In this document: one piece after another, positions 6,479 through 33,065 of the stretch
Position numbering within the stretch: the stretch's first letter is position 1
Layout: each line of letters starts with the position of its first letter
IMG/VR virus record: IMGVR_UViG_2923302340_000008
DNA length: 35,686 bases
Source of the DNA: a virus
Taxonomy: Duplodnaviria; Heunggongvirae; Uroviricota; Caudoviricetes
Strand: one strand, 5' to 3'
The notes under the pieces: model-generated
Seen by the model: the letters and a program-made list of their open reading frames with translations, nothing else
What the model was told of the DNA's origin: nothing
Database searches by the model: none
Translations under genes and position numbers: made by a program

Positions 6479-6706
6479 ATGTTTAAATCAGACGTAATTA
6501 ATTTTTACGGTACGAAAGCCAAAGTAGCGAAAGCTGCTGGCGTTGACCCATCTGCTGTTTCTCAATGGCAAGAGCTGGTTCCTGAAGGTCGCGCGATGCG
6601 TCTACAGGAGGCATCTGGCGGCGAGCTTCTGTATGATCCCAAGGTTTATGACGAATATCGTAAGACGAAGCGGGCGGGGCGGTTGAACAATGAAAATCAC
6701 TCCTGA
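6479..6706 (+). CDS. dicC: DicC-like Cro-type regulator
   Basis: 75-aa product with C-terminus …LVPEGRAMRLQEASGGELLYDPKVYDEYRKTKRAGRLNNENHS as recalled for DicC. GGAGG RBS. Divergent from dicA. Confidence 0.75.
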   Translation: MFKSDVINFYGTKAKVAKAAGVDPSAVSQWQELVPEGRAMRLQEASGGELLYDPKVYDEYRKTKRAGRLNNENHS

Positions 6707-7211
6707 ACAGGCTCGTGAGGCTCTGGATGCTTGGATATGTCGACCAGGAATGACACAGGAGCAGGCGACGATATTAATCACTGAAGCATTCTGGGCTTTG
6801 AAAGAGCGCCCGAACATCGATGTTCAGCGTGTCACAGATGAAGGTGGCGCGGTTGATCAGCGAGCGCTTGGCGTTAATCGAGTGAAGATATTCGAACGCT
6901 GGAAGGCTATCGACACCAGGGATAAGCGTGAAAAGTTCACGGCGCTAGTGCCTGCAATTATGGAGGCTATCCGGATTAATGATTTCAGGTTGTATCGTGA
7001 AATTAGTGACGGAAAAAGCATCACGTACATGATCGCCGGGTTAAACAAAGAATATGGCGATGTGGTGGAGTCCGGACTGCTTTTTGCTGATCCTGCCGTA
7101 GTGGATCGTGAAACTGACGAACTTATAGAAAAAGCAATTGCTTTCAAACTTGCGTATCGACAGCAATACCAACAAAAAGCTGGATGGAATTATGAGCCTT
7201 CTTTTTGCTGA
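6690..7211 (+). CDS. Phage early-region protein of unknown function
   Basis: 173-aa ORF beginning inside the dicC 3' end and co-directional with it, upstream of the replication gene. No recognisable motifs. Confidence 0.5.
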   Translation: MKITPEQAREALDAWICRPGMTQEQATILITEAFWALKERPNIDVQRVTDEGGAVDQRALGVNRVKIFERWKAIDTRDKREKFTALVPAIMEAIRINDFRLYREISDGKSITYMIAGLNKEYGDVVESGLLFADPAVVDRETDELIEKAIAFKLAYRQQYQQKAGWNYEPSFC

Positions 7212-8157
7212 ACGCCCACTGGTTATAAACACACAGCTTGCGATGAAGATTGGCTTAAATGAAGCCATTGTGTTGCAGCAGTTGCATTACTGGTTGAGAG
7301 ATACCAATTCCGGCATGGAATGTGATGGTGTTCGCTGGATTTACAACACAACGGAACAATGGCTGGAACAGTTCCCATTCTGGTCAGAGTCAACGTTAAA
7401 GCGCGCGTTTGCAAGTCTGAAAACGCTGGGGCTTTTGCGTTGTGAAAAGCTCAATAAATCAAAGCGCGATATGACCAATTTCTACACGATTAACTATGGG
7501 AGCGAGCTTTTAGATGATGGCAAATTGAGCGAATCCATCGGTTCAAAATGCGCCGCTCCATCAGGTCAAAATGACACGATGGAAGAGGTCAAAATGAAAC
7601 GCTCCATTGGTTCAAAACGACCCAATGTCATCGGGTCAAAATGGCCTGATGATCTTACAGAGAATACAACAGAGATTACTACAGAGAATAAAAACACTTT
7701 TCGTCCGGAAGCTTCGCAATCGGACCCGCAGACAGCTGAACAGAATTATTTAACCCAATATCCTGACGCGGTGGTTTTCAGTGCTAAAAAACGTCAGTGG
7801 GGGAATCAGGAGGATTTGGCGTGTGCGCAATGGATCTGGGCACGAATCGTGAGCCTTTACGAACAGGCCGCCAGTGATGATGGCGAGATCATGCGACCAA
7901 AAGAGCCTAACTGGACTGCCTGGGCTAATGACGTGCGCACAATGCGGATGCTGGATGGCAGAAGCCATAAACAAATTTGCGAAATGTTTGGTCGGGTTCA
8001 GCGAGATCCATTCTGGGTAAAAAACATCATGAGCCCTTCAAAGCTCCGCGAAAAATGGGATGAACTGGTCATTCGCCTGGGGCGTTCACCTGTACAGCGT
8101 TGTGTGAATCATATTTCTGAGCCGGACAGCGAAATTCCACCGGGATTCAGGGGGTAG
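7192..8157 (+). CDS. Replication initiation / replisome-organizer-like protein with N-terminal HTH
   Basis: 321-aa product. The N-terminal region (NTQLAMKIGLNEAIVLQQLHYWL) is HTH-like. Repeated SIGSK/VIGSK peptides are encoded by an internal iteron array, analogous to ori inside lambda O. Confidence 0.65.
   Translation: MSLLFAERPLVINTQLAMKIGLNEAIVLQQLHYWLRDTNSGMECDGVRWIYNTTEQWLEQFPFWSESTLKRAFASLKTLGLLRCEKLNKSKRDMTNFYTINYGSELLDDGKLSESIGSKCAAPSGQNDTMEEVKMKRSIGSKRPNVIGSKWPDDLTENTTEITTENKNTFRPEASQSDPQTAEQNYLTQYPDAVVFSAKKRQWGNQEDLACAQWIWARIVSLYEQAASDDGEIMRPKEPNWTAWANDVRTMRMLDGRSHKQICEMFGRVQRDPFWVKNIMSPSKLREKWDELVIRLGRSPVQRCVNHISEPDSEIPPGFRG
7537..7644. repeat. Iteron array (candidate replication origin) inside the replication initiator gene
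   Basis: Five copies of a GG(T)TCAAAA(T/C)G motif spaced about 23-24 bp apart, at 7540, 7564, 7587, 7609 and 7633. Confidence 0.6.
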
Positions 8158-8159
8158 GT

Positions 8160-8372
8160 ATGCACAGCAGTAATCAACAGGCCGCAATCCAGCATTTGCT
8201 GGAGAACGGGGAAGCCACGTTCCGGGAGCTGGCTGATGCTCTTGGTGTGACCAACAAGAAAATTCAAAACCTGCTCCAGAACATACAGCGGTACGGGCAG
8301 CTTGTGCGGGAGGGGGAAAAATATCGGCTGGTACCGAACTGGCAGGAAAAATCTGCATTGCAAAAGCGGTAA
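8160..8372 (+). CDS. Small winged-helix/HTH-like protein
   Basis: 70-aa ORF with an ATG 2 bp after the replication gene stop and a G-rich RBS. Motif FRELADALGVTNKKIQNL is HTH-like. Confidence 0.5.
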   Translation: MHSSNQQAAIQHLLENGEATFRELADALGVTNKKIQNLLQNIQRYGQLVREGEKYRLVPNWQEKSALQKR

Positions 8373-8621
8373 CCGAAAGGTCAACAGCGTCGAAACAGGC
8401 TGCGGCGCAGGAATGTCGCCGGAACAGCAACGGATACCAGAGACAAAAAATTTTGGGGAGTAGTCGGGGAGTCGGTAACAGAGCTTAGGTAGAGCAATTG
8501 ATGCCAACTGACCTCTAACGTTTTGTTTCATGTTGTCATTATGTTTCAATTTAGTGGAATTGTTAATAAAGTGTTTTTATAATTAAAAACCAAACTACAG
8601 ATAGCATGGAGCTTTTGTTCA

Positions 8622-10178
8622 ATGAATGCCTATAAATTCAGAAATAATGATGAGATTGGAAAATTAGAGGCGGAAACTGATTCTTATCTTGATGCTTGTT
8701 TTTATGAGTCCAATGTTTTTAAAGGTATTGTGAATTTTGACTCTACTGAGAAGAATCCTGATTTTACAAGAAGAATTATTGTTGGAAGAACAGGAAGCGG
8801 TAAGTCTGCGTTGCTTAAAAAAATATTAGACAAAGGAAATATTAAGCTGCATGACACAATAGAGGCAGAAAATACGATATTTGAACATATTAATAACAAT
8901 GTGTTTATATCTGATTTGATCTCGAAAGGGATAGATTTACGTGGGTTTTATAAATCGTTATGGCTGCATGTATTACTTATGAAAGTTATACCAGCCGTTT
9001 ATCGTTCTTCCTATCAAAGCTTTTTTGAGGAAATTAAAGATCTTATTGGTGGTAAGAAGAAACCGTATAAACCAGAAGTTGCGAATGATTATATTGAACA
9101 ATTTAAAGAAAATTTCTTCAATGATAAAGCGCTCATTGAAATAAGTAACAAGCTTGAAAGTGATTTGTCATTCAAACTCGGAAATTCCGCTGTTGGTGTG
9201 GGTGGTAAAATATCTAATTCTGATACAGCCAAAATACAATCAGAAACTTCAAGTTATGTGAGTCGTGAACTTCTTTTTAAACAAAAAGAACTTATTAAAA
9301 TACTTAAAGAGGAGTTCGCTGACTCAAACCAGGTTAGAATAGTAATCAGTATCGATGATTTAGATAAATCTTGGTTAAGCACGAGCGCCATCAGATATGA
9401 CTTTATTAATGCTCTTCTTGAGGCCTTTCGAGAATTATTAGATATAAAGTCGGTTAAGGTTCTGATATCAATAAGAACAGATATTTTAATGGGAATTTAT
9501 AAAAGTAGTTTAAGGCAGGATGAGAAAGATCAATCTTTAATATATTCCATATCATGGAATAAAACGGAAATAAGAGAGATTATTGATGCTAGAATTAACC
9601 ATTTGGTTAAAAATAGATATCAATCAAATAAGTCTGTATTAATGAAGGATATTTTTAATTTTACAGTTGAAGGTATTGGAGCAGATGATTATATCCTTGA
9701 CAGAACAATGCTTAGGCCTAGAGATGCAATTAATTTCGTAAATATATGTCTTTCTGAGTGCGATGGTATGGTTAACATGAATGAAAATATTGTGTTAATT
9801 GCCGAAGAGAAATTTTATTCGTCCAGAAAGAGAGCTTTGGTTACAGAATGGAAAAGCATATATCCGTTTATCGAAGAATATTTGGATGTGCTTTCCTTGA
9901 TTTCATTTTCTGATTTTACAGTCTCAAACATAGGACAAGCAGTAAAAGATGATATATCGCAGCATTTACTTGATAGATTGACTGTAGTTAAAGAGGATGA
10001 TCAACATACAAAAATATTGATGAATTTTGAGGAGTTACTTAAAGTCTGGTTCGTCGTAGGCGTGGTTGGCATAAGGAAAACAGTATCTTTAATTTTATAT
10101 TCATCTTTTGATAAACCTAATTTGGATATTACTGATATGAAGAGAGATTTTGTAATACATCCGTTGTTTGATAGGTAA
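8622..10178 (+). CDS. AT-rich P-loop NTPase of unassigned family (candidate defence or abortive-infection protein)
   Basis: 518-aa ORF. Walker A is IIVGRTGSGKSALLKKI near residue 55. Walker B-like VRIVISIDDLDKSW lies near residue 243. Candidate sensor and arginine motifs are ISIRTD and LRPRD. Base composition is markedly AT-rich versus flanks. A TATAAT hexamer sits at 8578..8583 and a GGAG RBS upstream. Confidence 0.75.
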   Translation: MNAYKFRNNDEIGKLEAETDSYLDACFYESNVFKGIVNFDSTEKNPDFTRRIIVGRTGSGKSALLKKILDKGNIKLHDTIEAENTIFEHINNNVFISDLISKGIDLRGFYKSLWLHVLLMKVIPAVYRSSYQSFFEEIKDLIGGKKKPYKPEVANDYIEQFKENFFNDKALIEISNKLESDLSFKLGNSAVGVGGKISNSDTAKIQSETSSYVSRELLFKQKELIKILKEEFADSNQVRIVISIDDLDKSWLSTSAIRYDFINALLEAFRELLDIKSVKVLISIRTDILMGIYKSSLRQDEKDQSLIYSISWNKTEIREIIDARINHLVKNRYQSNKSVLMKDIFNFTVEGIGADDYILDRTMLRPRDAINFVNICLSECDGMVNMNENIVLIAEEKFYSSRKRALVTEWKSIYPFIEEYLDVLSLISFSDFTVSNIGQAVKDDISQHLLDRLTVVKEDDQHTKILMNFEELLKVWFVVGVVGIRKTVSLILYSSFDKPNLDITDMKRDFVIHPLFDR

Positions 10179-12440: not shown

Positions 12441-12457
12441 TTTTGTGGAGTAAGTTG

Positions 12458-12835
12458 ATGCGTGATATTCAGATGGTTCTTGAGCGTTGGGGGGCATGGG
12501 CGGCTAATAATCATGAAGATGTGACCTGGTCGTCCATTGCCGCCGGTTTTAAGGGATTAATTCCTTCAAAAGTAAGATCTCGTCCGCAATGCTGTGACGA
12601 TGACGCGATGATCATTTGTGAATGTATGGCTCGCCTGAAAAAAAACAACAGCGATTTACATGATTTATTGGTGGACTATTATGTCGGCGGCATGACTTTT
12701 ATGGCGCTTGCACGTAAGCATGGGCGATCTGATTGTTGGGTTGGCAGGATGCTCCAGAAAGCTGAGGGCGTAGTGGAGGGCATGCTGATGGTGTTGGATC
12801 TCCGATTGGAGATGGATGCTGATTGTTCGAAATAA
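12458..12835 (+). CDS. Putative late-gene antiterminator Q
   Basis: 125-aa ORF ([21 protein letters not shown]…) with a Cys cluster. It sits at the Q position and is followed by a promoter-like sequence and a strong terminator. Confidence 0.55.
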
Positions 12836-12935
12836 TCAAAGGAAAAGTTGCTGTCTGATTTTCATTAGTCTAACATTTTAAATGTTGGAATCGCAACGTA
12901 GTTATTATCATATAACAGCTTGTTTCCTGATTTAG

Positions 12936-12962
12936 CCAGCCTCCCCAAAGGCTGGTTTTTTT
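12936..12962 (+). terminator. Rho-independent terminator (candidate tR' after Q)
   Basis: CCAGCC-tccccaaa-GGCTGG hairpin followed by seven T residues. Confidence 0.7.
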
Positions 12963-12990
12963 CTAATAAGTATCATTTCGGGTGGGGATT

Positions 12991-13515
12991 TTATTGTTTA
13001 ACCCATAATAGTTCATTGACATTGAATCCCAACTTTTGAGCGGTACGCACATAGTCTGCTTTTACATTATCTGGAATAGTTTGGGTCCTTGCCAGAATCC
13101 ATAGGTATTCTCTGTTCGGACCACTGACAAGAGCATACTTATACTCATCATCCAGCTTGATTACATTATAGCCACCATAGAAGGGGCCAAAAAACGAAAC
13201 TTTCAACGCTGCAGTTTTAGTATCTCCAGTAAAGTATGCTTTACCTTCGCTCTCGCTCCATTTGTTTTTCGTTGGATCGTATCCACGGTTAAGTACGCGA
13301 ATCCCTCCGTCGTTCCGTTTTTCATAAGTAGCGCTGACTTGTTCCAGACCACGTTCGAACCAGTTCTCGAGGCGAGCTATTTCATACCATTTTCCGAGGT
13401 AGCGGTTGGCGTCAAAATTTGTAATCGGCTGCACACCTTTAGGTGGTGTCGGGGCCTTACATGCTATAAGAGTGAAAGAGAGTGCAATGCCAGTCAACAC
13501 AGGCCATAACTTCAT
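12991..13515 (-). CDS. blc: Blc-like outer-membrane lipocalin lipoprotein (moron)
   Basis: 174-aa ORF with a signal peptide and lipobox (LIAC). Lipocalin-like motifs (NFDANRYLGKWYEIARLENWFERG) are present. Confidence 0.75.
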   Translation of the reverse strand: MKLWPVLTGIALSFTLIACKAPTPPKGVQPITNFDANRYLGKWYEIARLENWFERGLEQVSATYEKRNDGGIRVLNRGYDPTKNKWSESEGKAYFTGDTKTAALKVSFFGPFYGGYNVIKLDDEYKYALVSGPNREYLWILARTQTIPDNVKADYVRTAQKLGFNVNELLWVKQ

Positions 13516-13707
13516 AATAAATCCTGTACTTTTGATAGTTGAGAGTAAGTATGAAAGATAGATGAGTACGACCGATCACTTAAAGAACTTTCCTACTATA
13601 TTAGGAATAGTCCATAACAGAAAAATTGTCAGTGATGAAGCCAGAAAGGCAATTTAGTCCGTGCATTACAAAGTTTATGTGTTAATGAATTAGTCAAGGG
13701 GGAGGAA

Positions 13708-14667
13708 ATGATAAAAAAACCTGTGATTGGGATCAGCGGTTGTTTGGGCGGTTCTGCTGTTCGTTTTGATGGTGGTCACAAAAGAGATGACTTTTTAATG
13801 GACAAATTAGTGGAATGGGTAACATTCAGACCAGTATGTCCGGAAATGGCTATAGGGCTGCCAGTTCCGCGTCCTGCTCTACGACTTGTGCGCTCGAAGC
13901 AAGGAAATATACGGATGTGTTTCAGCCACGACCAGAATGAGGATGTGACAGAGAGAATGACAGAGTTTAGTCGTTCTTATATGGACAAATTAAAGGATGT
14001 ATCGGGGTTTGTGGTTTGTGCTAAATCTCCCAGCTGTGGCATGGAGCGCGTGCGTGTCTATGATGAAAATGGTAATCGAGGTCGTAAAGATGGAGTGGGA
14101 CTATTTACGAGCACTTTGATGGAAAAGTTTTCCTGGCTACCGGTTGAAGAGGATGGGCGATTACATGATCCAGTGCTTCGTGAGAATTTTATTGAAAGAG
14201 TTTTTGCTTTGCATGAGCTCAATCATCTTTACAAGGAGAAATTATCAAGAAGAGAGTTATTAGCTTTTCATAGTCGTTATAAGCTTCAGTTGTTGGCGCA
14301 TAGCCAGGCAGGCTATAAAGATATGGGACCATTTGTGGCTGCAATACACGAGTGGGCGGACCTTGAATCATACTTTGAGGTGTATCGTGATAATCTGATG
14401 GCGATTCTCAGAAAACCAGCATCACGTAAAAATCACACGAATGTGCTGATGCATATACAGGGGTATTTTAGTAATTACTTAAGTACACGCCAGCGTAAAG
14501 AGTTGAGCGAGGTTATACTTAACTATCGCTTTGGCACATTGCCTCTTCTTGCGCCGTTGACTCTGCTGAAGCATTATCTGGGTGAGTATCCTAATGATTA
14601 CTTGCTTACACAGAATTACTTCGATCCCTATCCGGAAGAACTGGCTCTAAGACTGATGGTGAATTAA
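13708..14667 (+). CDS. DUF523/DUF1722 fusion protein (TudS-like Cys-rich N-domain with YbgA-like C-domain)
   Basis: 319-aa ORF. The N-terminus GISGCLGGSAVRFDGGHK plus further conserved Cys residues suggest DUF523. The C-terminal half is helical, as in DUF1722. This assignment is from memory. Confidence 0.55.
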   Translation: MIKKPVIGISGCLGGSAVRFDGGHKRDDFLMDKLVEWVTFRPVCPEMAIGLPVPRPALRLVRSKQGNIRMCFSHDQNEDVTERMTEFSRSYMDKLKDVSGFVVCAKSPSCGMERVRVYDENGNRGRKDGVGLFTSTLMEKFSWLPVEEDGRLHDPVLRENFIERVFALHELNHLYKEKLSRRELLAFHSRYKLQLLAHSQAGYKDMGPFVAAIHEWADLESYFEVYRDNLMAILRKPASRKNHTNVLMHIQGYFSNYLSTRQRKELSEVILNYRFGTLPLLAPLTLLKHYLGEYPNDYLLTQNYFDPYPEELALRLMVN

Positions 14668-14759
14668 CTGTATGCGATATCATCTGAAAGTGATGAGTTC
14701 CTGTATGCAGGATATTTACAATCGTAAAAACTACGCTATGATGCCCATTGGATTTGCCC

Positions 14760-15665
14760 CTATATTTCCAGACATCTGTTATCACTTAACCCATTACAGG
14801 CCCGCTGCCGCAGATATTCCCGTGGCGAGCGATAACCCAGCGCACTATGCGGATGCCATTCGTTATAATGCTCGAACGCCTCTGCAAGGTTCTTTGCTGC
14901 CGTTAACCCGTCTGGTTTGGGCATGATACTGATGTAGTCACGCTTTATCGTTTTCACGAAGCTCTCTGCTATTCCGTTACTCTCCGGACTCCGCACCGCC
15001 GTGTTCTTCGGTTCAAGTCCCAACATCCGGGCGAACTGGCGTGTTTCATTAGCCCGGTAGCATGAACCATTATCCGTCAGCCACTCCACTGGAGACGACG
15101 GAAGATCGTTGCCGAAGCGGCGTTCCACCGCTCCCAGCATGACGTCCTGTACTGTTTCACTGTTGAAGCCGCCAGTAGTCACCGCCCAGTGCAGTGCCTC
15201 ACGATCACTGCAGTCCAGCGCGAACGTGACACGCAGTCTCTCTCCGTTATCACAGCAGAACTCGAACCCGTCAGAGCACCATCGCTGATTGCTTTCTTTC
15301 ACGGCCACTCTGCCTGTATGTGCCCGTTTCGATGGCGGTACAGCAGGTTTTCGCTCAAGCAACAGCGCATTCTGGCGCATGATCCGGTAAACACGTTTGG
15401 CATTGATCGCAGGCATACCATCAAGTTCTGCCTGTCTGCGAAGCAGCGCCCATACCCGACGATAACCATACGTGGGCAGCTCTCCGATAACATGGTGTAT
15501 ACGGAGAAGCACATCCGTATCATCAGTGTGACGACTGCGGCGGCCATCCATCCAGTCATCGGTTCGTCTGAGAATGACGTGCAACTGCGCACGCGACACC
15601 CGGAGACAACGGCTGACTAAGCTTACTCCCCATCCCCGGGCAATAAGGGCGCGTGCGCTATCCAC
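14760..15665 (-). CDS. insD: IS2 transposase InsD (OrfB)
   Basis: 301-aa product [23 protein letters not shown]… matches recalled IS2 InsD. DDE integrase core. Confidence 0.9.
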
Positions 15666-15988
15666 TTTTTTGCCCGTCCATATTCAACGGCTTCTTTGAG
15701 GAGTTCATTTTCCATCGTTTTCTTGCCGAGCAGGCGCTGGAGTTCTTTAATCTGCTTCATGGCGGCAGCAAGTTCAGAGGCAGGAACAACCTGTTCTCCG
15801 GCGGCGACAGCAGTAAGACTTCCTTCCTGGTATTGCTTACGCCAGAGAAATAACTGGCTGGCTGCTACACCATGTTGCCGGGCAACGAGGGAGACCGTCA
15901 TCCCCGGTTCAAAGCTCTGCTGAACAATTGCGATCTTTTCCTGTGTGGTACGCCGTCTGCGTTTCTCCGGCCCTAAGACATCAATCAT
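15623..15988 (-). CDS. insC: IS2 InsC (OrfA)
   Basis: 121-aa product [24 protein letters not shown]… matches recalled IS2 InsC. It overlaps the insD start, as expected for a frameshift fusion. Confidence 0.85.
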
Positions 15989-16400
15989 CTGTTCTCCAAT
16001 GACTAGTCTAAAAACTAGTATTAAGACTATCACTTATTTAAGTGATACTGGTTGTCTGGAGATTCAGGGGGCCAGTCTACCCATAGTGTCAGTTTGTATA
16101 AAAATCCTGTTCACGCTAAAGAAAACATTGAGATGCAATTTAATGTTGGTAAACATACCAGCCCCAAAAGATTTTATTCAATCTGTTTTTATATGAAGAT
16201 ATTTCAAGTGAATATTAAGAGCATATAATATTATTATTGCACGCAGCTATTATAATATAACAGATTAGTTTAATGATTTGTTTTTTGTGAGTTAAACACA
16301 TGGTTTTATAGTTGTGATGCAATGAGATTTTCCTTATTGTTGAACTGGCGAATATTGATTTTCCACCTATACTTACCTGGTGTAACCCCAATGATATCAG

Positions 16401-17123
16401 GTGGATAATATGCCATACATATGTTCTATCATTTTGGTGTTGAACTCGTTTGGTGTCCGAATTGGTAAAGAAGATATTTTGTTTAAAAAAGGAAATGCTG
16501 TCCTCATTGAATACAATTTAAAAGATCTTTTTTCGTCAAATACAGATCATCTAATGATCGTAGATGTTGAGGAGAAAACAGTTAATGATTTCTTTAAAAA
16601 CTACACACTCTCACCTTTTTCTGTAAGAAGGTTTTATCCGTCATACTTGATAGTAGAATGTGAAGATTTTTCATTGTTAAGGAACTTGGTTGCATGCTTG
16701 AATTGTGATAGCAAAACCGTGGATGTAGTTAGAAATCAAATATCACTTGCATGTCTTGCTGTCTTATCTTCAGAGAAAATAGTGCAAAGTTTTTTGTTCG
16801 GAAGTCTTAATAGCTTAGGTTGTAAAGTTAAGGCTATTATTCACTCGGATATCTCAGCGTCATGGAGACTTTGTGATATATCTTCAAGATTATATATGAG
16901 CGAGAGTTTGTTAAAAAGAAAATTAAAAGACGAAGGATTATCGTTTAGTAAATTAATTCTTGAAGAACGAATGATGATGGCGCAAAGATTATTGATCTAC
17001 AGTAACCATACTGTCGGCAAGGTGGCGGGAATATGCGGGTATGACAATGCATCATATTTTGTAAGTGTTTTTAGAGGATATTTTGGTGTGCCTCCGCACC
17101 AATATTTATCAAGATTTTCTTAG
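16401..17123 (+). CDS. AraC/XylS-family transcriptional regulator (AppY/PatE-like)
   Basis: 240-aa ORF in a strongly AT-rich segment. The C-terminus carries an AraC-type HTH (…KVAGICGYDNASYFVSVFRGYFGVPPHQY). Confidence 0.75.
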   Translation: MDNMPYICSIILVLNSFGVRIGKEDILFKKGNAVLIEYNLKDLFSSNTDHLMIVDVEEKTVNDFFKNYTLSPFSVRRFYPSYLIVECEDFSLLRNLVACLNCDSKTVDVVRNQISLACLAVLSSEKIVQSFLFGSLNSLGCKVKAIIHSDISASWRLCDISSRLYMSESLLKRKLKDEGLSFSKLILEERMMMAQRLLIYSNHTVGKVAGICGYDNASYFVSVFRGYFGVPPHQYLSRFS

Positions 17124-17313
17124 AAGATATGATGTGATGGCATTTTATAAAGTTATTTTTTGAAGTGTAAGATTATACGATATTTTTAGCTACGCCAGAA
17201 TAATTGCTGGCGTTTTTCTTTTTGAATAGATGTTCGGGCCTTACGCTAATGTAACTTCTTTCCTTCTTCGAACCAAACCGTGTACACCATCCGTTATCTG
17301 CGGAGGTGAGGCT

Positions 17314-17529
17314 ATGAAATCCATGGATAAGTTAACAACGGGCATCGCCTACAGCACCTCTGCAGGCAGTGCTGGCTACTGGTTTTTACAGTTGCTCGAT
17401 AAAGTCACGCCCTCACAGTGGGCGGCAATAGGTGTATTGGGTAGTCTGGTATTTGGCATGCCGACGTATCTGACAAACCTTTATTTCAAGATTAAAGAAG
17501 ACAGGCGTAAGGTTGCGAGAAGAGAGTAA
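17314..17529 (+). CDS. Class II holin (S21-like pinholin)
   Basis: 71-aa product with dual start MKSM and motif [15 protein letters not shown]…[13 protein letters not shown]…[15 protein letters not shown] resembling recalled S21. GGAGG RBS. Confidence 0.8.
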
Positions 17530-20857: not shown

Positions 20858-21150
20858 TCTGTTTAGTATTAGCATCAATTTCTCATCAGATGCTATTCAA
20901 CAATACAAATTACCCATAAACCTCGTTTTTACGGGGTTTTGTTATATTTAAACATTACCGAATAGGTATAAATCTCGATTGTCGATGGTATTGGTTGTGT
21001 GACAATACCTAGTCTTTCCGGTATGCCTGAAGAGAATACAAACGACAGATTATGTAAGGGAAACGCGCTGAATCTTTAACTCTTTCATGCTGAGTGATTT
21101 GACGTTATATTTTTAGCCGTAAGTGAAGAGCAAACGCATGGAGCGACAAA

Positions 21151-21357
21151 ATGCATAAAGATCAATACACTGATGCCCCCTCCCAGGAGCAGGTTCGTGT
21201 AAAAACTATGCTTAATAGCACCATTTCGATGGGTTACCCGGATGTTGTAATTGCATGTATAGAACATCAAGTGTCTCTGGAAGCATTCAGGGCAATTGAG
21301 GCCGCGTTAGTAAAGCACGATAAGAATACGAAGGATTATTCCCTGGTGGTTGACTGA
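21151..21357 (+). CDS. Hypothetical small protein
   Basis: 68-aa ORF with a GGAG RBS. Family unknown. Confidence 0.35.
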
Positions 21358-21719
21358 TCACCATAACTGCTAACCATTCTGACCATTTCACAAGTGACAG
21401 AGTCAATATCGTATTCTGTCACTGTCAGGCTAATACAGCAATGCAATTCAACTACAGCAATGCCTCGTATTTAGGTGAATTTACAATATCGTCCAGTTCG
21501 GATGCCGGCTGCATTTCTGAAGATAAGGCATTTCGGTTCTCGTATTTTCCCCTCATGCTCGTCAGTCCTGCGCGTAGTAAGAAACAGGACACTCACACTA
21601 ATTTGTGTGGGCATGCTGTGATGTCCTTCTGAATTATCCCCATGCCATTATGTAAAGCTCTGTTACAGATGCTCGTCACGGTTGTCAGGCTGTCGGGTCC
21701 TCCCAGTGGGGGGCCCTGC

Positions 21720-21745
21720 CACGGGGCGGGAGCGTCGCGGAAAAA
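21720..21745. other. Candidate cos site (cosN-like)
   Basis: CACGGGGCGGGAGCGTCGCGG followed by an A/T-rich tract resembles recalled lambda cosN (…ACGGGGCGGCGACCTCGCGGG…). It lies about 190 bp upstream of the terminase small-subunit gene. Confidence 0.55.
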
Positions 21746-21909
21746 GGCTAGTTTTTGAAATTTTATTCGTCATCACCACTACTGTAATTGATTGATATTA
21801 CAGTTGTTTTAATTTTATGGTGTCGATTCTGATTGTTTTTTGTTCATCACTAACACCGTTTGCCTAAAGTTGTTCGCAAGATGCATGTTTAAAACATTCT
21901 GGAGCGGGT

Positions 21910-22404
21910 ATGGATCGAGAGTTAAAAAATCTGACGCTGAATATCAGTCAACTGGCGGCATTGTCAGGTGTACATCGCCAGACTGCTGCGGCAAGGCTGC
22001 AAAATCTACCCGTTGCAGGGGGGCATGAAAGCAACCTCAAGCTTTATCGGGTGGTTGATATTGTGTCGGCATTTCTGGCATTACCACCGCCGGTTGCAGA
22101 AGGCGAAATGGACGCGCATGAGCGCAAAGCCTGGTATCAGTCTGAACGTGAGCGTCTTAAGTTCGAACAGGAAACGGCACAACTCATTCCGGCCAGTGAT
22201 GTCAGACGGGAGTTTGCCATCTGGGCAAAAGCGGTCGTGCAGGTGCTGGAGACATTACCGGATATTCTTGAACGTGACTGCGGTCTGCAGCCTGCCGCTG
22301 TGAGCCGTGTTCAGTCCATTATTGATGATCTGCGCGATCAGATAGCCCTGCGGGTGACTGAAGCAGGTGCGGATGATGAGGAGGAATTACAGCAGGAGGA
22401 GTAA
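21910..22404 (+). CDS. Terminase small subunit (Nu1-like)
   Basis: 164-aa ORF with an N-terminal HTH and acidic C-terminus. It is immediately upstream of, and overlaps, the terminase large-subunit gene. Confidence 0.7.
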   Translation: MDRELKNLTLNISQLAALSGVHRQTAAARLQNLPVAGGHESNLKLYRVVDIVSAFLALPPPVAEGEMDAHERKAWYQSERERLKFEQETAQLIPASDVRREFAIWAKAVVQVLETLPDILERDCGLQPAAVSRVQSIIDDLRDQIALRVTEAGADDEEELQQEE

Positions 22405-24506
22405 TGCTGAATCAGGAAACCGCAAAGGCAGCACGAACCGATTCAGGTTATATCCTTCGCGCACCGAGACGAATGCGGGTTGCTGATGCCGTTGCTCAGT
22501 ATATGCGGGTGCCCATGGGGGCAGGGAACTCAGTCCCGTGGGATCCGCTGGTGGCACCGTATGTTATTGAGCCTATGAACTGCCTGGCCTCGCGTGAATA
22601 CGACGCAGTGATATTTGTTGGCCCGGCACGAACCGGCAAGACTATCGGCCTGATTGACGGCAGGGTGATTTACAACGTGATTTGCGATCCTGCTGATATG
22701 CTGATCATTCAGATGACGGAGGAAAAAGCCCGCGAACACTCCAAAAAACGACTCGCCAGAACGTTTCGCGTCAGCCCGGAAGTGGTCAGTCGCCTGAGTC
22801 CGAACAAAAATGACAACAACGTTTATGACCGAACATTCCTTGCTGGCAACTACCTGAAAATCGGCTGGCCGTCAGTCAATATCATGTCTTCATCAGATTA
22901 TAAATGCGTGGCGCTGACGGATTATGACCGTTTTCCGGAAGATATTGATGGTGAGGGGGATGCCTTCTCTCTTGCCTCAAAACGTACCACCACATTTATG
23001 TCCAGTGGTATGACGCTGGTGGAGAGTTCCCCCGGCAGGGATGTGAAGGATGTGAAATGGCGACGGACTTCACCGCATGAGGCTCCACCAACCACGGGGA
23101 TCCTGTCGCTCTATAACCGTGGCGATCGCCGTCGCTGGTACTGGCCCTGTCCACACTGTGGTGAGTATTTTCAGCCCTGCGGCGATGTGGTTGCTGGTTT
23201 CCGTGATATTGCCGATCCTGTGCTGGCAAGTGAGGCGGCTTATATTCAGTGTCCTTCCTGTTCAGGACGGATTTTGCCTGAACAAAAACGCGAGCTGAAC
23301 GGACGTGGGGTCTGGTTACGGGATGGTGAATCCATCAATGCAGATGGCAGTCGTTATGGTGATCCCCGGCGTTCACGTATTGCGTCATTCTGGATGGAGG
23401 GTCCGGCAGCTGCTTATCAGACACTCTCGCAACTCGTTTACAAACTGCTTACTGCAGAACAGGAATACGAGACAACCGGAAGTGAAGAGACACTCAAGAC
23501 GGTTATCAATACCGACTGGGGATTACCTTATCTTCCCCGCGCCAGCATGGAGCAACGAAAAAGTGAATTGCTTGAGCAGCGGGCAGAGCCAGTTCCTTCC
23601 CGCAGTGTGCCGGATGGCGTTAATTTCCTTGTGGCGACAGTGGATGTGCAGGCGGGACATCATCGCCGTTTTGTGGTTCAGGTAACGGGCTATGGCAGCC
23701 GTGGCGAACGCTGGATTATTGATCGTTACAACATCACGCAGTCATTGCGCGGTGACAGCGACGGGGAGAGCCAGCGAATTGATCCGGCCAGCTATCCGGA
23801 AGACTGGGATGTCCTGCTGACGGATGTTTTTCATAAAAGCTGGCCGCTGGCCTCCGATCCTTCTCAACAAATGCGACTGATGGCAATGGCGGTGGACTCC
23901 GGCGGTGAAGACGGGGTCACTGATAATGCCTATAAATTCTGGCGTCGTTGCCGTCGTGATGGCCTTGGTAAACGTATTTACCTGTTTAAGGGCGACAGCA
24001 TCCGGCGCGCAAAACTGATCACCCGTACATTCCCTGATAACACCGGACGAACGGGCCGACGGGCGCAGGCCGCAGGTGATGTACCGCTCTGGCTTCTTCA
24101 GACGGATGCCCTGAAAGACCGGGTGAATAACGCGTTATGGCGTGACTCGCCAGGTCCCGGCTATGTGCATTTCCCTGACTGGCTGGGGAGCTGGTTTTAC
24201 GACGAACTGACGTATGAAGAGCGGAGCAGTGACGGGAAATGGAGTAAGCCGGGTCGCGGTGCCAACGAAGCTTTTGACCTGATGGTGTATGCCGAGGCTC
24301 TGGTCATTCTGCATGGATACGAAAAGATCCGCTGGCCGGATGCACCGGAGTGGGCGAGCCGGGAAACCTGGCTGGAGTGTGTCCCGGACAGTACCGAACC
24401 GTCACCCACACCGGAACCGGTATCCACGCCTGTTAAAAAACAAAAACGGAAGAAAACAGTAACTGACGATGTTAACCCCTGGCTGACTTCCGGAGGATGG
24501 TTATGA
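22404..24506 (+). CDS. Terminase large subunit (gpA-like)
   Basis: 700-aa ORF with Walker A (VGPARTGKT), acidic motifs, and position between Nu1-like and W/portal genes. Confidence 0.85.
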   Translation: MLNQETAKAARTDSGYILRAPRRMRVADAVAQYMRVPMGAGNSVPWDPLVAPYVIEPMNCLASREYDAVIFVGPARTGKTIGLIDGRVIYNVICDPADMLIIQMTEEKAREHSKKRLARTFRVSPEVVSRLSPNKNDNNVYDRTFLAGNYLKIGWPSVNIMSSSDYKCVALTDYDRFPEDIDGEGDAFSLASKRTTTFMSSGMTLVESSPGRDVKDVKWRRTSPHEAPPTTGILSLYNRGDRRRWYWPCPHCGEYFQPCGDVVAGFRDIADPVLASEAAYIQCPSCSGRILPEQKRELNGRGVWLRDGESINADGSRYGDPRRSRIASFWMEGPAAAYQTLSQLVYKLLTAEQEYETTGSEETLKTVINTDWGLPYLPRASMEQRKSELLEQRAEPVPSRSVPDGVNFLVATVDVQAGHHRRFVVQVTGYGSRGERWIIDRYNITQSLRGDSDGESQRIDPASYPEDWDVLLTDVFHKSWPLASDPSQQMRLMAMAVDSGGEDGVTDNAYKFWRRCRRDGLGKRIYLFKGDSIRRAKLITRTFPDNTGRTGRRAQAAGDVPLWLLQTDALKDRVNNALWRDSPGPGYVHFPDWLGSWFYDELTYEERSSDGKWSKPGRGANEAFDLMVYAEALVILHGYEKIRWPDAPEWASRETWLECVPDSTEPSPTPEPVSTPVKKQKRKKTVTDDVNPWLTSGGWL

Positions 24507-24715
24507 ATCAGAATGATATTGAAGCCATGATTCAGCGTTATACGGAAGCTGAAATGGCGGCGCTGGACGGAAAATCCGTCACTTTTAATGGTCAGCAGAT
24601 GACCATGGAAAACTTATCTGAGATCCGGCAGGGGCGGCAGGAGTGGGAGCGCCGCCTTGCGGCTCTGATTACACGACGACGGGGGCATCCCGGGTACCGG
24701 CTGGCGAGGTTCTGA
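24503..24715 (+). CDS. Head-tail joining protein gpW-like
   Basis: 70-aa product whose C-terminus (…ITRRRGHPGYRL…) resembles recalled lambda gpW. GGAGG RBS. Its stop overlaps the portal start (TGATG). Confidence 0.65.
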   Translation: MNQNDIEAMIQRYTEAEMAALDGKSVTFNGQQMTMENLSEIRQGRQEWERRLAALITRRRGHPGYRLARF

Positions 24716-26223
24716 TGGCAATTCTTGATGATGTGATTGGCGTTTTTTCACCAGGATGGAAAGCGGCAAGGCTGCGTTCCCGAGCGGTGATCCAGGCTTA
24801 TGAGGCCGTAAAAACGACGCGGACACACAAAGCCCGACGGGAGAACCGAACTGCCGACCAGTTAAGCCAGTACGGGGCCGTGTCGTTACGTGAGCAGGCC
24901 CGTTACCTTGATAACAACCACGATCTGGTCATTGGTGTATTTGACAAGCTGGAAGAACGGGTGGTGGGGAAAAACGGGATTATTGTCGAGCCACATCCGG
25001 TATTACGCAATGGTGCCATTGCCCGTGACCTGGCAGCGGAGATACGTACCCGATGGAGTGAATGGTCTGTCAGTCCGGAAGTCACCGGGCAGTTTACCCG
25101 TCCGATGCTGGAACGTCTGATGCTGCGTACCTGGCTGCGCGATGGTGAGGTGTTTGCCCAGATGGTTTCCGGGCGCATAAACAGCCTGACGCCTTCTGCC
25201 GGTGTTCATTTCTGGCTGGAGGCGCTCGAGCCGGACTTTATTCCCATGACCAGTGATGAGAGCAACAGGCTGAATCAGGGCGTGTTTGTTGATGACTGGG
25301 GGCGTCCCGAAAAATATCTGGTGTATAAAAGTCGTCCTGTATCCGGACGGCAGATGGAAACCAAAGAAGTGGATGCAGAGCGAATGCTGCATCTTAAATT
25401 TGTTCGCCGTCTGCACCAGATGCGCGGGACGTCTTTATTGTCCGGTGTGCTGATCCGCCTCAGCGCCCTGAAAGAGTATGAAGATTCTGAGCTGACTGCA
25501 GCAAGGATCGCCGCTGCTCTGGGGATGTACATCCGGAAAGGCGACGGACAGAGCTATGAAACGGATGGTAATGACAGCAAGGAGAATGAACGCGAGCTTA
25601 CCATTCAGCCAGGCATTATTTACGACGATCTGAAACCCGGCGAAGAAATCGGAATGGTGAAGTCGGATCGTCCCAATCCTAACCTTGAAACTTTTCGTAA
25701 TGGTCAGTTGCGTGCCGTGGCGGCGGGCAGTCGTCTGAGTTTTTCCAGTACGGCACGCAACTATAACGGCACTTACAGCGCCCAGCGTCAGGAACTGGTT
25801 GAGTCTACTGATGGCTACCTGATCCTGCAGGACTGGTTTATTGGTGCCGTCACCCGCCCGATGTATCGTGCCTGGCTGAAACAGGCTGTGGCATCCGGTG
25901 TTATCAGGCTACCCCGCGATCTTGACCGTTCTTCACTGTATACCGCGGTGTATTCCGGACCAGTGATGCCGTGGATTGACCCTGTTAAGGAGGCTGAGGC
26001 CTGGAAAATCCAGATTCGTGGTGGAGCGGCGACAGAATCAGACTGGGTACGTGCTGGTGGTCGTAATCCGGATGATGTCAAACGTCGGCGCAAGGCCGAA
26101 ATTGATGAAAACCGCAAGCTGGATCTGGTATTTGATACCGATCCGGCCAGTGATAAAGGAGGCAGCAGTGCCGCAACGAAACGACAGGAGCCGCAGCACA
26201 CCGACGACCAGTCCGAAGAATAA
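24715..26223 (+). CDS. Portal protein (gpB-like)
   Basis: 502-aa ORF following gpW with translational coupling. Size and position match lambda-type portal. Confidence 0.8.
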   Translation: MAILDDVIGVFSPGWKAARLRSRAVIQAYEAVKTTRTHKARRENRTADQLSQYGAVSLREQARYLDNNHDLVIGVFDKLEERVVGKNGIIVEPHPVLRNGAIARDLAAEIRTRWSEWSVSPEVTGQFTRPMLERLMLRTWLRDGEVFAQMVSGRINSLTPSAGVHFWLEALEPDFIPMTSDESNRLNQGVFVDDWGRPEKYLVYKSRPVSGRQMETKEVDAERMLHLKFVRRLHQMRGTSLLSGVLIRLSALKEYEDSELTAARIAAALGMYIRKGDGQSYETDGNDSKENERELTIQPGIIYDDLKPGEEIGMVKSDRPNPNLETFRNGQLRAVAAGSRLSFSSTARNYNGTYSAQRQELVESTDGYLILQDWFIGAVTRPMYRAWLKQAVASGVIRLPRDLDRSSLYTAVYSGPVMPWIDPVKEAEAWKIQIRGGAATESDWVRAGGRNPDDVKRRRKAEIDENRKLDLVFDTDPASDKGGSSAATKRQEPQHTDDQSEE

Positions 26224-26236
26224 TTCCTGGTTCAGG

Positions 26237-28045
<1,809 letters not shown>

Positions 28046-28764: not shown

Positions 28765-28775
28765 GTGGGGTGAAT

Positions 28776-31700
28776 ATGGCAGTAAAGATTTCAGGTGTAC
28801 TGAAAGACGGCACAGGAAAACCGGTACAGAACTGCACAATCCAGCTGAAAGCAAAACGTAACAGTACCACGGTGGTGGTGAACACGCTGGCCTCAGAAAA
28901 TCCGGATGAAGCCGGGCGTTACAGCATGGACGTTGAGTACGGGCAGTACAGCGTTATTCTGTTGGTGGAAGGATTCCCGCCGTCACATGCCGGGATCATC
29001 ACCGTGTATGAAGATTCTCAACCCGGTACGCTGAATGATTTTCTCGGTGCCATGACGGAGGATGATGCCCGTCCGGAGGCACTGCGCCGTTTTGAACTGA
29101 TGGTGGAAGAGGTGGCGCGTAACGCGTCCGTGGTGGCACAGAACACGGCAGTCGCGAAGAAGTCAGCCGGCGATGCCGGCACATCTGCCCGTGAGGCGGC
29201 AACCCATGCGACTGATGCTGCAGGCTCAGCACGCGCAGCCAGCACGTCAGCCGGACAGGCCGCTTCGTCGGCTCAGTCAGCGTCTTCCAGCGCAGGAACG
29301 GCATCAACAAAGGCCACTGAAGCGGAAAAAAGTGCTGCCGCTGCAGAGTCCTCAAAAAGCGCGGCGGCCATCAGTGCCGCTGCGGCGAAAACGTCAGAAA
29401 CGAATGCGGCAGAGTCACAACAATCAGCAGCCACTTCTGCATCCACCGCGACCACGAAAGCGTCAGAAGCTGCCACCTCAGCCCGGGATGCGTCAGCTTC
29501 AAAAGAGGCGGCAAAATCATCAGAAACGAGCGCAGCCTCGAGCGCCAGCAGCGCAGCTTCCTCGGCAACGGCGACAGCAAATTCTGCGAAGGCGGCAAAA
29601 ACGTCCGAGACGAACGCTAAGTCTTCTGAAACGGCAGCGGGACAGAGTGCCTCAGCTGCGGCAGGCTCAAAAACAGCGGCTGCGTCGTCTGCCAGTGCCG
29701 CGTCAACAAGTGCCGGGCAGGCCTCAGCCAGTGCCACCGCTGCCGGAAAATCGGCAGAAAGCGCCGCATCGTCCGCTTCAACAGCCACAACGAAGGCTGG
29801 CGAAGCCACTGAACAGGCCAGTGCAGCAGCGAGGTCTGCTTCCGCAGCGAAGACATCCGAGACGAACGCGAAAGCGTCGGAAACCAGCGCAGAATCCTCA
29901 AAAACGGCTGCCGCATCGTCCGCCAGTTCGGCGGCGTCATCGGCATCATCTGCGTCTGCTTCAAAAGATGAGGCGACCAGACAGGCGTCAGCAGCGAAGG
30001 GCAGCGCCACGACGGCATCCACGAAGGCGACAGAGGCTGCTGGTAGTGCGACGGCAGCAGCTCAGAGCAAAAGTACGGCGGAATCTGCAGCAACGCGCGC
30101 TGAGACAGCGGCAAAACGGGCAGAGGATATTGCATCCGCCGTGGCGCTTGAGGATGCGAGCACGACGAAAAAGGGGATAGTACAGCTCAGTAGTGCGACT
30201 AACAGCACTTCCGAGTCACTGGCGGCAACACCAAAAGCCGTTAAGGCCGCGTATGACCTGGCTAACGGGAAATACACCGCACAGGATGCAACGACAGCAC
30301 AGAAAGGGATAATCCAGCTAAGCAGCGCGACCAACAGCACGTCTGAAACGCTGGCGGCAACGCCAAAGGCAGTAAAAGCAGCCAATGACAATGCTGAGAA
30401 ACGTCTGCAGAAAGATCAGAACGGTGCGGATATCCCTGGCAAAGACACCTTTACGAAAAATATTGGTGCCTGCCGTGCCTTCGGTGGGTCAGTAAGCACA
30501 ACAACAGGAAACTGGACGACTGCACAGTTTATCGAGTGGCTGGATTCTCAGGGAGCATTTAACCATCCATACTGGATGTGCAAGAGTTCCTGGTCTTATG
30601 GCAATAATAAAATCATTACTGATACTGGCTGCGGTAATATTCATCTCGCCGGAGCTGTCATTGAAGTAATGGGGATAAAGTCAGCGATGACGATCCGCAT
30701 TACCACTCCGACCACATCCAGCGGTGGCGGAACAACCAACGCCCAGTTTACCTATATTAATCACGGAACAGATTATTCACCTGGCTGGCGAAGGGACTAT
30801 AACTCCAGAAATAAGCCAACGGCATCAGAGATCGGGGCGCTACCGTCAGGTGGAACAGCAGTATCATCAGTTAATCTGGCTTCAAAAGGTCGGGTAGCCG
30901 CGCTGACAGACAATACGCAGGGGGCAGCAGGTCTTGAGTTATACGAGGTGTATAACAACGGATATCCAACAGCGTATGGAAATATCATTCACCTGAAAGG
31001 GATGACAGCCGTTGGCGAAGGTGAGTTACTCATCGGCTGGAGTGGTACAAGCGGTGCTCATGCTCCGGCATTTATTCGTTCACGACGGGATACGACCGAC
31101 GCAAACTGGTCGCCGTGGGCGCAGCTTTACACCTCAGCTCATCCTCCTGCAGAGTTTTATCCAGTCGGTGCACCAATCCCGTGGCCATCAGATACCGTTC
31201 CGTCTGGTTATACCCTGATGCAGGGGCAGACTTTTGACAAATCTGCATACCCGAAACTTGCAGCCGCTTATCCGTCAGGCGTGATCCCTGATATGCGTAG
31301 CTGGACGATTAAGGGCAAACCTGCCAGTGGTCGGGCCGTATTGTCTCAGGAACAGGACGGCATTAAATCGCACACCCACAGCGCCAGCGCATCCAGTACG
31401 GATTTGGGGACGAAAACCACATCGTCGTTTGATTACGGCACTAAATCCACGAATAACATCGGGGCGCATACGCACAGTGTGAGCGGTACAGCCGCAAGTG
31501 CCGGAAACCATACTCATAGTGTCACAGGCGCATCAGCAGTCAGCCAGTGGTCACAAAATGGGTCAGTACATAAGGTAGTGTCTGCGGCCAGTGTGAATAC
31601 AAGTGCTGCAGGAGCGCACACTCATAGTGTCAGCGGCACAGCTGCATCTGCAGGTGCTCACGCACATACTGTCGGTATTGGTGCTCATACGCACTCTGTT

Positions 31701-31802
31701 GCGATTGGCTCACATGGACACACCATCACCGTTAACGCTGCTGGTAACGCGGAAAACACCGTCAAAAACATCGCATTTAACTATATTGTGAGGCTTGCAT
31801 AA
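28776..31802 (+). CDS. stf: Side tail fibre protein Stf (lambda orf401/orf314-type)
   Basis: N-terminus [26 protein letters not shown]… and C-terminus …[28 protein letters not shown] closely match recalled lambda Stf. A long Ala/Ser-rich repetitive core is present. Confidence 0.9.
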
Positions 31803-32377
31803 TGGCATTCAGAATGAGTGAACAACCACGGACCATAAAAATTTATAATCTGCTGTCCGGAACTAATGAATTTATTGGTGAAGGTGATGCATATATTCCG
31901 CCTCATACAGGTCTGCCAGCAAACAGTACCGATATTGCACCGCCAGATATTCCGGCTGGTTTCGTGGCTGTTTTCAACAGTGATGAGTCATCGTGGCATC
32001 TCGTTGAAGATCATCGGGGTAAAACGGTTTATGACGTGGCTTCCGGCGACGCGTTATTTATTTCTGAACTCGGCTCATTACCGGAAAATGTCACCTGGTT
32101 ATCCCCGGAAGGGGAGTTTCAGAAGTGGAACGGCACAGCCTGGGTGAAGGATACGGAAGCAGAAAAACTGTTCCGGATCCGGGAGGCGGAAGAAACAAAA
32201 AACAGCCTGATGCAGGTAGCCAGTGAGCATATAGCGCCGCTTCAGGATGCTGTGGATCTGGAGATCGCAACGGAGGAAGAAACCTTGTTGCTGGAAGCCT
32301 GGAAAAAGTATCGGGTGTTGCTGAACCGTGTTGATACATCAACTGCACCGGATATTGAATGGCCAGCCCTACCGTAG
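31802..32377 (+). CDS. tfa: Tail fibre assembly protein Tfa
   Basis: 191-aa ORF overlapping the stf stop (TAATG). Size and position match lambda Tfa. Confidence 0.8.
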
Positions 32378-32474: not shown

Positions 32475-33065
32475 TTATATATCAGGTGTCTGATTTTTTG
32501 CTTTAGCTCTTAAAATGGTTTGCCGCGAGGTTTTGAATTCTTGGGCAATGTCACTTATATTTATACCTGACTTAATTTGCTCTAGTACCCTCTGTATTTG
32601 TTCATCATTTAACACAGGTGGGCGACCAAATCGCTTTCCTGCGCCCCGTGCTCTTAATATCCCTGAATGAGTACGCTCAAGTAAAAGGTCTCGCTCAAAT
32701 TCAGCGACTGCTGAAATTACTTGCATCATCATTTTTCCAGGTGGACTGGTCAGGTCAACGCCCCCCAATGCTAAGCAATGCACTTTGATACCTGCTTTGG
32801 TCAGTTGTTCCACCGTTTTACTGATATCCATTGGATTACAACCGAGGCGATCCAGTTTTGTGACAATCAATGCATCACCTCTTTTCAGTCGATCAAGCAA
32901 CTGGTTAAAACCAGGACGCTCACTGGTTGCTGCTGAGCCGCTAATTTGTTCTTCAATTATTTGCTGAGATTTGATGTTAAAACCTGCACTTTCGATTTCC
33001 CGACGTTGATTTTTGGTTGTTTGTTCCAGAGTTGATACCCGACAGTAAGCATAAATTCGAGACAT
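32475..33065 (-). CDS. pin: Serine recombinase / DNA invertase (Pin/Gin/Hin family)
   Basis: 196-aa product [15 protein letters not shown]… has the catalytic Ser near the N-terminus and a C-terminal HTH. Length matches PinQ/PinR. Confidence 0.9.

Follow-up and report, generated by a model that had tools for sequence, protein, structure and literature searches.

The window, that is, the whole stretch of 35,686 nucleotides analyzed here (IMG/VR record IMGVR_UViG_2923302340_000008), harbors a Qin-type defective lambdoid prophage in ydfJ. Genes for an integrase, a CI-like repressor, a CII-like protein, an O-like initiator, Q and a lysis cassette precede the packaging region, and a ydfJ-type MFS transporter gene lies at the end of the window. 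Membership in the Qin type is indicated by the ydfJ insertion together with the Qin gene set, both judged from the annotation of strain D2 and of K-12 Qin; in the RefSeq annotation of the near-identical D2 region, this set comprises dicB, ydfD, hokD, rem, ydfU, essQ, rrrQ, rzpQ, cspI, ynfN, gnsB, pinQ, and ydfK. A search for att repeats placed the left att outside the window; the element is roughly 34 kb long, as compared to 43-46 kb for complete relatives.

The first gene of the packaging module, terS (21910..22404, plus strand), encodes a small terminase subunit of 164 aa with a DUF1441 domain (PF07278, E = 2.7e-41; phrog_141, E = 7e-74) and is 100% identical at the protein level to TerS of Ayreon, phi458, vB_EcoS-569R4, and vB_EcoS-813R6. 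In the original prediction, this gene was termed Nu1-like, a designation that may hold for its remote ancestry but not for its family: TerS sits in the place of Nu1, yet is outside the Nu1 family as Pfam defines it. It did not match the Phage_Nu1 profile (PF07471), only DUF1441 being matched, whereas the same profile recognizes the TerS proteins of lambda (2.5e-100) and Gifsy-1 (9.5e-100), and BLASTP of TerS against Nu1 revealed no pairwise similarity (E = 20). Reciprocal, weak but near-full-length profile matches (window TerS to phrog_57, 8e-10; lambda Nu1 to phrog_141, 6e-8) nevertheless suggest that the DUF1441 protein is a remote Nu1 homologue. Matches of residues 3-33 to helix-turn-helix (HTH) profiles were all sub-threshold, and a sequence search of solved structures with TerS returned no match.

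The subsequent terL (22404..24506, plus strand) encodes an intact large subunit of 700 aa with the ATPase and endonuclease domains of the gpA family (PF05876 and PF20454), identical to mEp460 TerL in 696/700 positions and free of internal stops. With 25% identity (E = 5e-19), it is a distant homologue of lambda gpA; a gpA-family large terminase is found adjacent to the cos site described below. Next follow an intact gpW/Ad1-like head-tail adaptor (24497..24715, plus strand; phrog_118, E = 3.7e-36; 69/70 versus mEp460, no internal stop) and an intact portal of the lambda family (24715..26223, plus strand; 502 aa, PF05136; 497/502 versus mEp460, likewise without internal stop). The module then breaks off within a ClpP-like protease/scaffold/capsid fusion gene, of which the first ~95 nt (26237..26331, plus strand) are collinear with mEp460 gene 005 up to ...GATCTGAA(TG). 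At this deletion junction, an ISEc31-like IS3-family element of 1258 bp (26332..27589, minus strand) with transposase domains, terminal inverted repeats TGTAGTGG... and 94-98% identity to annotated ISEc31 copies stands in place of the capsid gene, the entire set of tail-shaft genes and the greater part of J. It is followed by a J remnant with the C-terminal receptor-binding domain (27590..28045, plus strand; PF12421 Ig_GpJ_C, profile positions 38-135 of 135) and by lom, stf, tfa, and pin. The earlier description of an intact terminase next to deleted head genes thus needs qualification: TerS and TerL are whole and the capsid is gone, but adaptor and portal are intact, and the tail shaft and most of J were lost as well. 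The IS is flanked by GAA on one side and TGT on the other, and these unequal flanks, with no target duplication, suggest an IS-mediated deletion.

Several further features of the prophage deserve mention. In the region 12443-17529, Q (12443-12835) and the holin gene (from 17230) are separated by a cargo of about 4.4 kb, which consists of genes for a lipocalin (12991-13515, minus strand), a YbgA-like protein (13708-14667) and an AraC-type regulator (16401-17123), as well as a second IS3-family element (14760-16033, minus strand). The latter, being located between Q and the lysis genes, may affect expression of the late operon, terminase included, and for this reason the expression of the resident terminase is uncertain. 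The O-like replication gene is followed by a gene for a KAP/Sll1717-type P-loop NTPase (window 8622-10178), while the same slot in strain D2 (D2 locus 6636-8423) carries an unrelated DUF4209 gene on the opposite strand; the slot is variable and possibly devoted to anti-phage defense. Finally, a pinQ-type DNA invertase gene (32475-33065, minus strand) adjoins the gene for a side tail fiber of 1010 aa plus tfa (28770-32377). This tail-fiber segment is likely invertible and is still intact, though the element can no longer make tails.

The site of interest lies upstream of the terminase genes, in the expected placement and orientation. Its full extent is about 21695-21909, of which the stretch originally flagged (21720-21760) takes in no more than cosN and the adjoining conserved segment. 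The cosN (21722..21737, plus strand) reads CG/GGGCGGGAGCGT/CG and is delimited here as defined by the Feiss lab, with a 12-bp cohesive end and 2 bp on each side. The putative cohesive end GGGCGGGAGCGT (21724-21735, plus strand) takes its register from lambda and from the ends of the Tritos and cdtI phage records, which would place the top-strand nick at 21723/21724 and the bottom-strand nick at 21735/21736; both the nick positions and the length of 12 nt follow from the analogy with lambda and from the point at which these two records were opened. Base 1 of this end (21724) precedes the terS ATG at 21910 by 186 bp; the ATG is therefore at +187, close to the +191 of the lambda nu1 ATG and in agreement with the predicted lambda-like distance of about 190 bp. 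The A/T-rich tract said to follow the motif is also evident, with a GC content of 0.33 over 21741-21909 versus 0.83 over 21695-21740 and 0.47 for the whole window. On the left, the site begins with a cosQ heptamer, GGGTCCT (21695..21701, plus strand), that is identical to lambda 48473-48479 and located 29 bp before the presumed top-strand nick (30 bp in lambda). In lambda, cosQ serves as the packaging-termination signal, and a 7-bp cosQ upstream of cosN is conserved in lambda-like cos sites (PMC4669245).

The string CACGGGGCGGGAGCGTCGCGG, which occurs once in the window (at 21720), matches the lambda record in 13/17 positions from -1 to +16, the value given in the original prediction, and in 16/22 positions from -5 to +17. 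The alignment with lambda cos proposed as a check does reveal similarity, including the identical cosQ heptamer. Although this 22-mer match is the best in the window, at least 16/22 was also attained in 31/200 window shuffles; by count alone, the likeness to lambda cosN is within chance and not significant, and the similarity count was rejected as evidence. More telling is where the differences fall. The cohesive end GGGCGGGAGCGT agrees with lambda GGGCGGCGACCT in 8/12 positions overall and in 6/6 of bp 1-6, with mismatches only at 7, 8, 9, and 11; neither the left half GGGCGG nor the CG pairs on either side (21722-21737) depart from lambda. The Feiss lab describes cosQ, the left half and the flanking CGs as conserved and bp 7-12 as naturally variable and tolerant to mutation (PMC4669245). 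Judged from the alignment, the four differences fit this pattern of natural variation and functional asymmetry exactly, and GGGCGGGAGCGT has the makeup of a lambda-like cohesive end in which bp 7-12 are free to vary (PMC4669245). The rotational symmetry of cosN amounts to 8/16 as compared to 10/16 in lambda.

That the segment merely resembles lambda cosN by chance owing to its GC-richness, or that it represents another kind of element, for instance a terminator or a structured regulatory site, would be in keeping with the 31 shuffles that score equally well. This reading has practically no probability left once the composite signature GGGTCCT-N(18-26)-CGGGGCGG-N6-CG is considered, which matches once in the window and in 0/100 shuffles. 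It is further countered by the identity to the termini of the Tritos and cdtI records and by a block conserved at 120 loci (see below). In addition, a search for a terminator-like site at the cos region found none, promoter-like matches are near background, and the segment does not differ from shuffles in fold energy (z = -0.08), on which grounds a terminator, promoter or structured element was rejected.

Two independent phage records have their termini at this very site. Tritos, which is prophage 3 of strain LF82 and a plaque-forming siphovirus (PMC9928086), is deposited as a linear record that ends in ...CTGCCACG and starts with GGGCGGGAGCGTCGCGG, which begins with GGGCGGGAGCGT; the cdtI record starts with GGGCGGGAGCGT, the same bases as the Tritos start. 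When joined, the ends of Tritos and cdtI are 100% identical to window 21716-21757 (-8 to about +33), in the same register as lambda ...GGTTACG/GGGCGGCGACCT. The opening of both records at GGGCGGGAGCGT indirectly supports 12-nt 5' extensions as physical ends, as does the related LLS record, which bears an annotated inferred 12-nt end; the cohesive end of mEp213/LLS is GGGCGGCGCGCT. Both records may, however, have been opened there by analogy with lambda. The LF82/Tritos paper is without a description of end mapping (PMC9928086). Within the literature searched, no physical end mapping for this cos type was found, and a search with the exact cohesive-end string gave a sole match, an unrelated mammalian paper. 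Likewise, 0/120 of the IMG/VR loci introduced below are on contigs that start at the nick, most of them being prophages from isolate genomes.

For comparison, viral contigs in IMG/VR were scanned for exact matches to this cosN, which yielded 120 further loci, or 121 including the window. In 113/121 copies, cosQ is at -29. To its left, several unrelated sequence classes are found, making cosQ the left edge of the conserved block. To the right of cosN, a conserved segment CGCGGAAAAAGGCTAGTTTTTG (+13 to +34; 21736..21757, plus strand) occupies the position of the lambda I2 region; from +1 to +34, identity is 34/34 in every pairwise comparison of four cosB classes, and divergence sets in from +35. 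At the 120 loci, unrelated classes thus abut both edges of the block from -29 to +34. This arrangement suggests that the edges are recombination joints at which late-region ends and cosB/terS modules are shuffled around a shared cosQ-cosN cassette. The stretch from cosQ to +34 can be regarded as a conserved cassette common to at least four cosB/TerS specificity classes, which extends the picture drawn from lambda, 21, and N15 to phages with a DUF1441 terminase. As far as sequence comparison goes, the site is confirmed as real by the identity to record ends, the composite signature, the conservation of the block at 120 loci, and its position and orientation; the prediction of a cos-like site upstream of the terminase genes was correct.

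Beyond the cassette, an AT-rich region equivalent to cosB reaches up to the terS start (21758..21909, plus strand), with its class-specific part at about +35 to +110 (21758-21833). Of the 121 loci, 63 belong to class A, the window among them, 38 to class B, which also contains Tritos and cdtI, 19 to class C and 1 to class D. Each class is paired with its own N-terminal TerS variant, and in all classes a DUF1441-type TerS follows. Between classes A and C, TerS is identical in 38/57 positions within aa 1-58 and in 105/106 within aa 59-164; for A versus D, the corresponding values are 45/57 and 104/106. Such co-variation of cosB and the TerS N-terminus would be expected if the N-terminal domain reads cosB, and has a parallel in lambda and phage 21: with cosQ and cosN in common, these two discriminate against each other's cosB more than 1000-fold (PMC4669245). 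By the same token, Tritos and cdtI resemble the window in having a DUF1441 TerS and a gpA-family TerL, but their cosB is unrelated beyond +34 and their TerS just 42% identical, which implies a packaging specificity probably other than that of the window, as for lambda versus phage 21.

Two candidate protein-binding sites stand out in this region. A perfect match (TATCAATCAATTA) to the IHF consensus WATCAANNNNTTR is located at 21785..21797 on the minus strand, in the position of lambda I1, and is the only match within +1 to +200 when up to one mismatch is allowed. The minus-strand position +62 to +74 is shared by class A, where the match is perfect, and by classes C and D, with 0-1 mismatch; in class B, a perfect match is found at +64 to +76, so that the position is conserved within 2 bp across all four classes. 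Lambda I1, at +79 to +91, was picked up by the same scan. Overlapping this candidate IHF site is an inverted repeat, ACTGTAAT-N8-ATTACAGT (21781..21804, no strand assigned), whose arms are mostly conserved and whose center is variable among 53 distinct class-A sequences. A search of cosB for R3/R2/R1-type repeats disclosed just this one 8-bp inverted repeat and weak, unconvincing repeats of 7-8 bp. By position, the interval equivalent to R3 of lambda/N15 is +48 to +65 (21771-21788; PMC9026076), and it is here that TerS would most likely bind. In sum, the site shares with lambda an identical cosQ heptamer, a partial two-fold symmetry, a downstream IHF consensus and a gpA-family TerL, but differs in its unrelated cosB sequence lacking recognizable R3/R2/R1 repeats, and in the TerS, which is Nu1 in lambda and DUF1441 here.

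We therefore consider it very likely that 21695-21909 is the cosQ-cosN-cosB packaging site of a lambdoid phage of the mEp460/Ayreon/phi458 type, a group with a Gifsy-2-like head module, kept in a Qin-type defective prophage in ydfJ. The closest known systems are the class-A phages phi458, Ayreon, mEp460, and mEp460_4F5, in which cosQ, cosN, cosB, and spacing are as in the window, TerS is 99-100% and TerL and portal are about 99% identical, and the head and tail modules are complete. From cosQ to the ATG, the window equals the plaque-forming phi458 and mEp460 except for a few cosB positions (about 7 versus phi458, with the same cosN), and these differences fall at positions that also vary among the 53 distinct natural class-A sequences. 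With cosQ, cosN and +1 to +34 identical to functional phages, the cos site looks intact at the sequence level. The authors of the Ayreon study predicted cos somewhere upstream of terS but did not pinpoint it (PMC5764929), and the genome records of mEp460 and Ayreon are opened at arbitrary positions. Two peculiarities of deposited records may be added: in mEp460_4F5 (LR595868), the record starts 4 nt left of the presumed nick and lacks 3 nt in the cohesive end (GGGCGGGA---GCG), which has the look of an assembly artefact at the physical ends of the DNA, and at position 12 of the cohesive end, mEp460 (JQ182728) reads G, not T.

A packaging site of this kind is not unusual for Qin. The Qin prophage of K-12 is found at the same locus (ydfJ) with the same neighbors cspI, ynfN, gnsB, rrrQ, rzpQ, pinQ, and ydfK, and carries a cosQ-cosN identical to that of lambda, followed by a Nu1-type nohA that is fused to stfQ; terL is missing (MG1655 1632000-1642000). 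Given that K-12 Qin keeps cosQ-cosN at this very locus, retention of cos in a defective Qin is the norm. In the window, by contrast, cos is of the GAGCGT kind, TerS is a DUF1441 protein, and TerL, adaptor and portal are all intact; the packaging module has been swapped between Qin-type prophages with the shared neighbors cspI, ynfN, and gnsB.

It might be argued that the element has evolved to depend on helpers, its cos, terminase, portal and tail-fiber set being under selection for a satellite-like hijack of the capsids and tails of related phages. The retained genes do form a coherent packaging set, the element has Int along with a CI-like repressor and an O-like replication gene, and there is precedent in Gram-negative PICIs such as EcCICFT073 and PICI-A, which are chromosomal, capsid-less, equipped with lambda-like cosQ and cosN in phage-like spacing, and packaged by helper machinery (PMC9026076). 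PICIs, however, possess an rpp gene beside cos that redirects the helper TerS, and no terminase of their own. In the window, the gene beside cos is an ordinary phage TerS (the one identical to that of Ayreon) and no Rpp-like redirector, followed by an intact TerL, and Q, a lysis cassette and tail-fiber genes are part of an element of about 34 kb with lambdoid prophage layout, not a small island of 10-15 kb with PICI layout. Moreover, the junction of portal, IS, and J remnant occurs in 0/5,426 complete E. coli genomes, and strain D2 has another deletion with a different endpoint at the same locus, joining a 36-aa TerL stub to lom' (D2 locus 21005-21436). These are independent events at one locus and marks of random decay, and as the deletion of the window is private to this strain, it speaks for decay, not design, as does the missing target duplication with the IS-mediated deletion it suggests. 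We accordingly regard selection for helper dependence as highly improbable, and a classification as satellite or PICI was rejected on the basis of gene content and the private deletion.

Another view would be that the site descends from a real cos but is an inert fossil, never used in this strain for want of a compatible helper, owing to a silent late operon, or through an inactivating cosB substitution. The prophage is defective, with capsid and tail genes deleted and two IS elements, and the cosB differences from phi458 would fit such a scenario; the copy of sister strain D2, which is devoid of even terL, attests to continuing decay with no selection for packaging. On the other hand, the parts shared with functional phages are unaltered, the cosB substitutions are confined to naturally variable positions, and compatible helpers are common, considering that the class-A cos/TerS region is present, with as many as 7 copies in one genome, in 2,112/5,426 complete E. 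coli genomes (39%), and with a coverage of at least 80% in 1,463. Permanent disuse thus strikes us as possible, if on the unlikely side. It concerns the use of the site, not its identity, and is compatible with our main explanation, a packaging site of the mEp460/Ayreon/phi458 type retained in a defective prophage.

The sequence anatomy, the conservation pattern, the identity to functional phages and the intact terminase genes are direct observations. How such a site would operate is modeled on lambda, from which we infer the nick positions, the overhang length, the binding of IHF and TerS, and any activity in the strain. Dimers of the DUF1441 TerS would bind the class-specific cosB, probably at about +48 to +65, spanning an IHF-induced bend at +62 to +74, and would thereby position the gpA-family TerL at cosN. 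Staggered nicks after 21723 (top strand) and 21735 (bottom strand) would then produce a 12-nt 5' extension, GGGCGGGAGCGT, and packaging would proceed rightwards, towards terS and terL. The cosQ would be needed for cutting and termination when terminase arrives from upstream. With no capsid or tail genes left in the element, the site can matter only together with a co-resident or infecting phage that supplies proheads and tails, while cleavage could be performed by the terminase of the helper (if of the same cosB class) or by the element's own.

Packaging of the element by a helper lambdoid phage, as envisaged in the original prediction, is plausible in principle. It should, however, not be open to any lambdoid phage: initiation at this site should be limited to helpers that belong to the same cosB class and to the resident terminase, because cosB and the TerS N-terminal domain come in at least four classes even though cosN and cosQ are widely shared. 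By lambda packaging limits, an element of about 34 kb would be close to the minimum length that can be stably packaged. Packaging of the lambda type needs a second cos in the same orientation or, otherwise, excision and concatemers; in the helper-packaging experiments of the Feiss lab, the second cos was provided by tandem prophages (PMC4669245). A more far-reaching proposal is that of a working helper-dependent element which, once a co-resident phage of the mEp460 type is induced, would be excised and replicated and would fill helper capsids by means of its resident terminase and cos (perhaps also its portal). Alternatively, cos might be cut in situ, with one-directional packaging of the adjoining chromosome (from ydfJ towards the mar region) into transducing particles. 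We rate this proposal as very unlikely.

The significance of the site is largely one of annotation, in that an exact packaging site and a predicted cohesive end, GGGCGGGAGCGT, can now be assigned to a very common group of E. coli prophages. It also marks a decayed Qin-type prophage as a potential substrate for the terminase of related phages, which bears on gene mobilization and will come as no surprise to specialists. The site is ordinary and expected, not new: it is a known kind of site from a common, sequenced E. coli phage group in a known kind of defective prophage.

Related cohesive ends are also encountered outside this group. In the Salmonella phage Gifsy-1, listed among the lambda-like cos sites by the Feiss lab (PMC4669245), cosQ is identical and the cohesive end GGGCGGCAGCGT is one base (position 7) off that of the window, but, unlike the window, Gifsy-1 has a true Nu1-family TerS and head genes of the lambda/21 type. 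VT1-Sakai (at about 268-340) and several Stx2 phages contain a related cos with just 11 nt between the flanking CGs (CG/GGGCGGGCGGG/CGCGGAAAAAGG), so that either the overhang would be 11 nt long, or the nick shifted, or the site defective.
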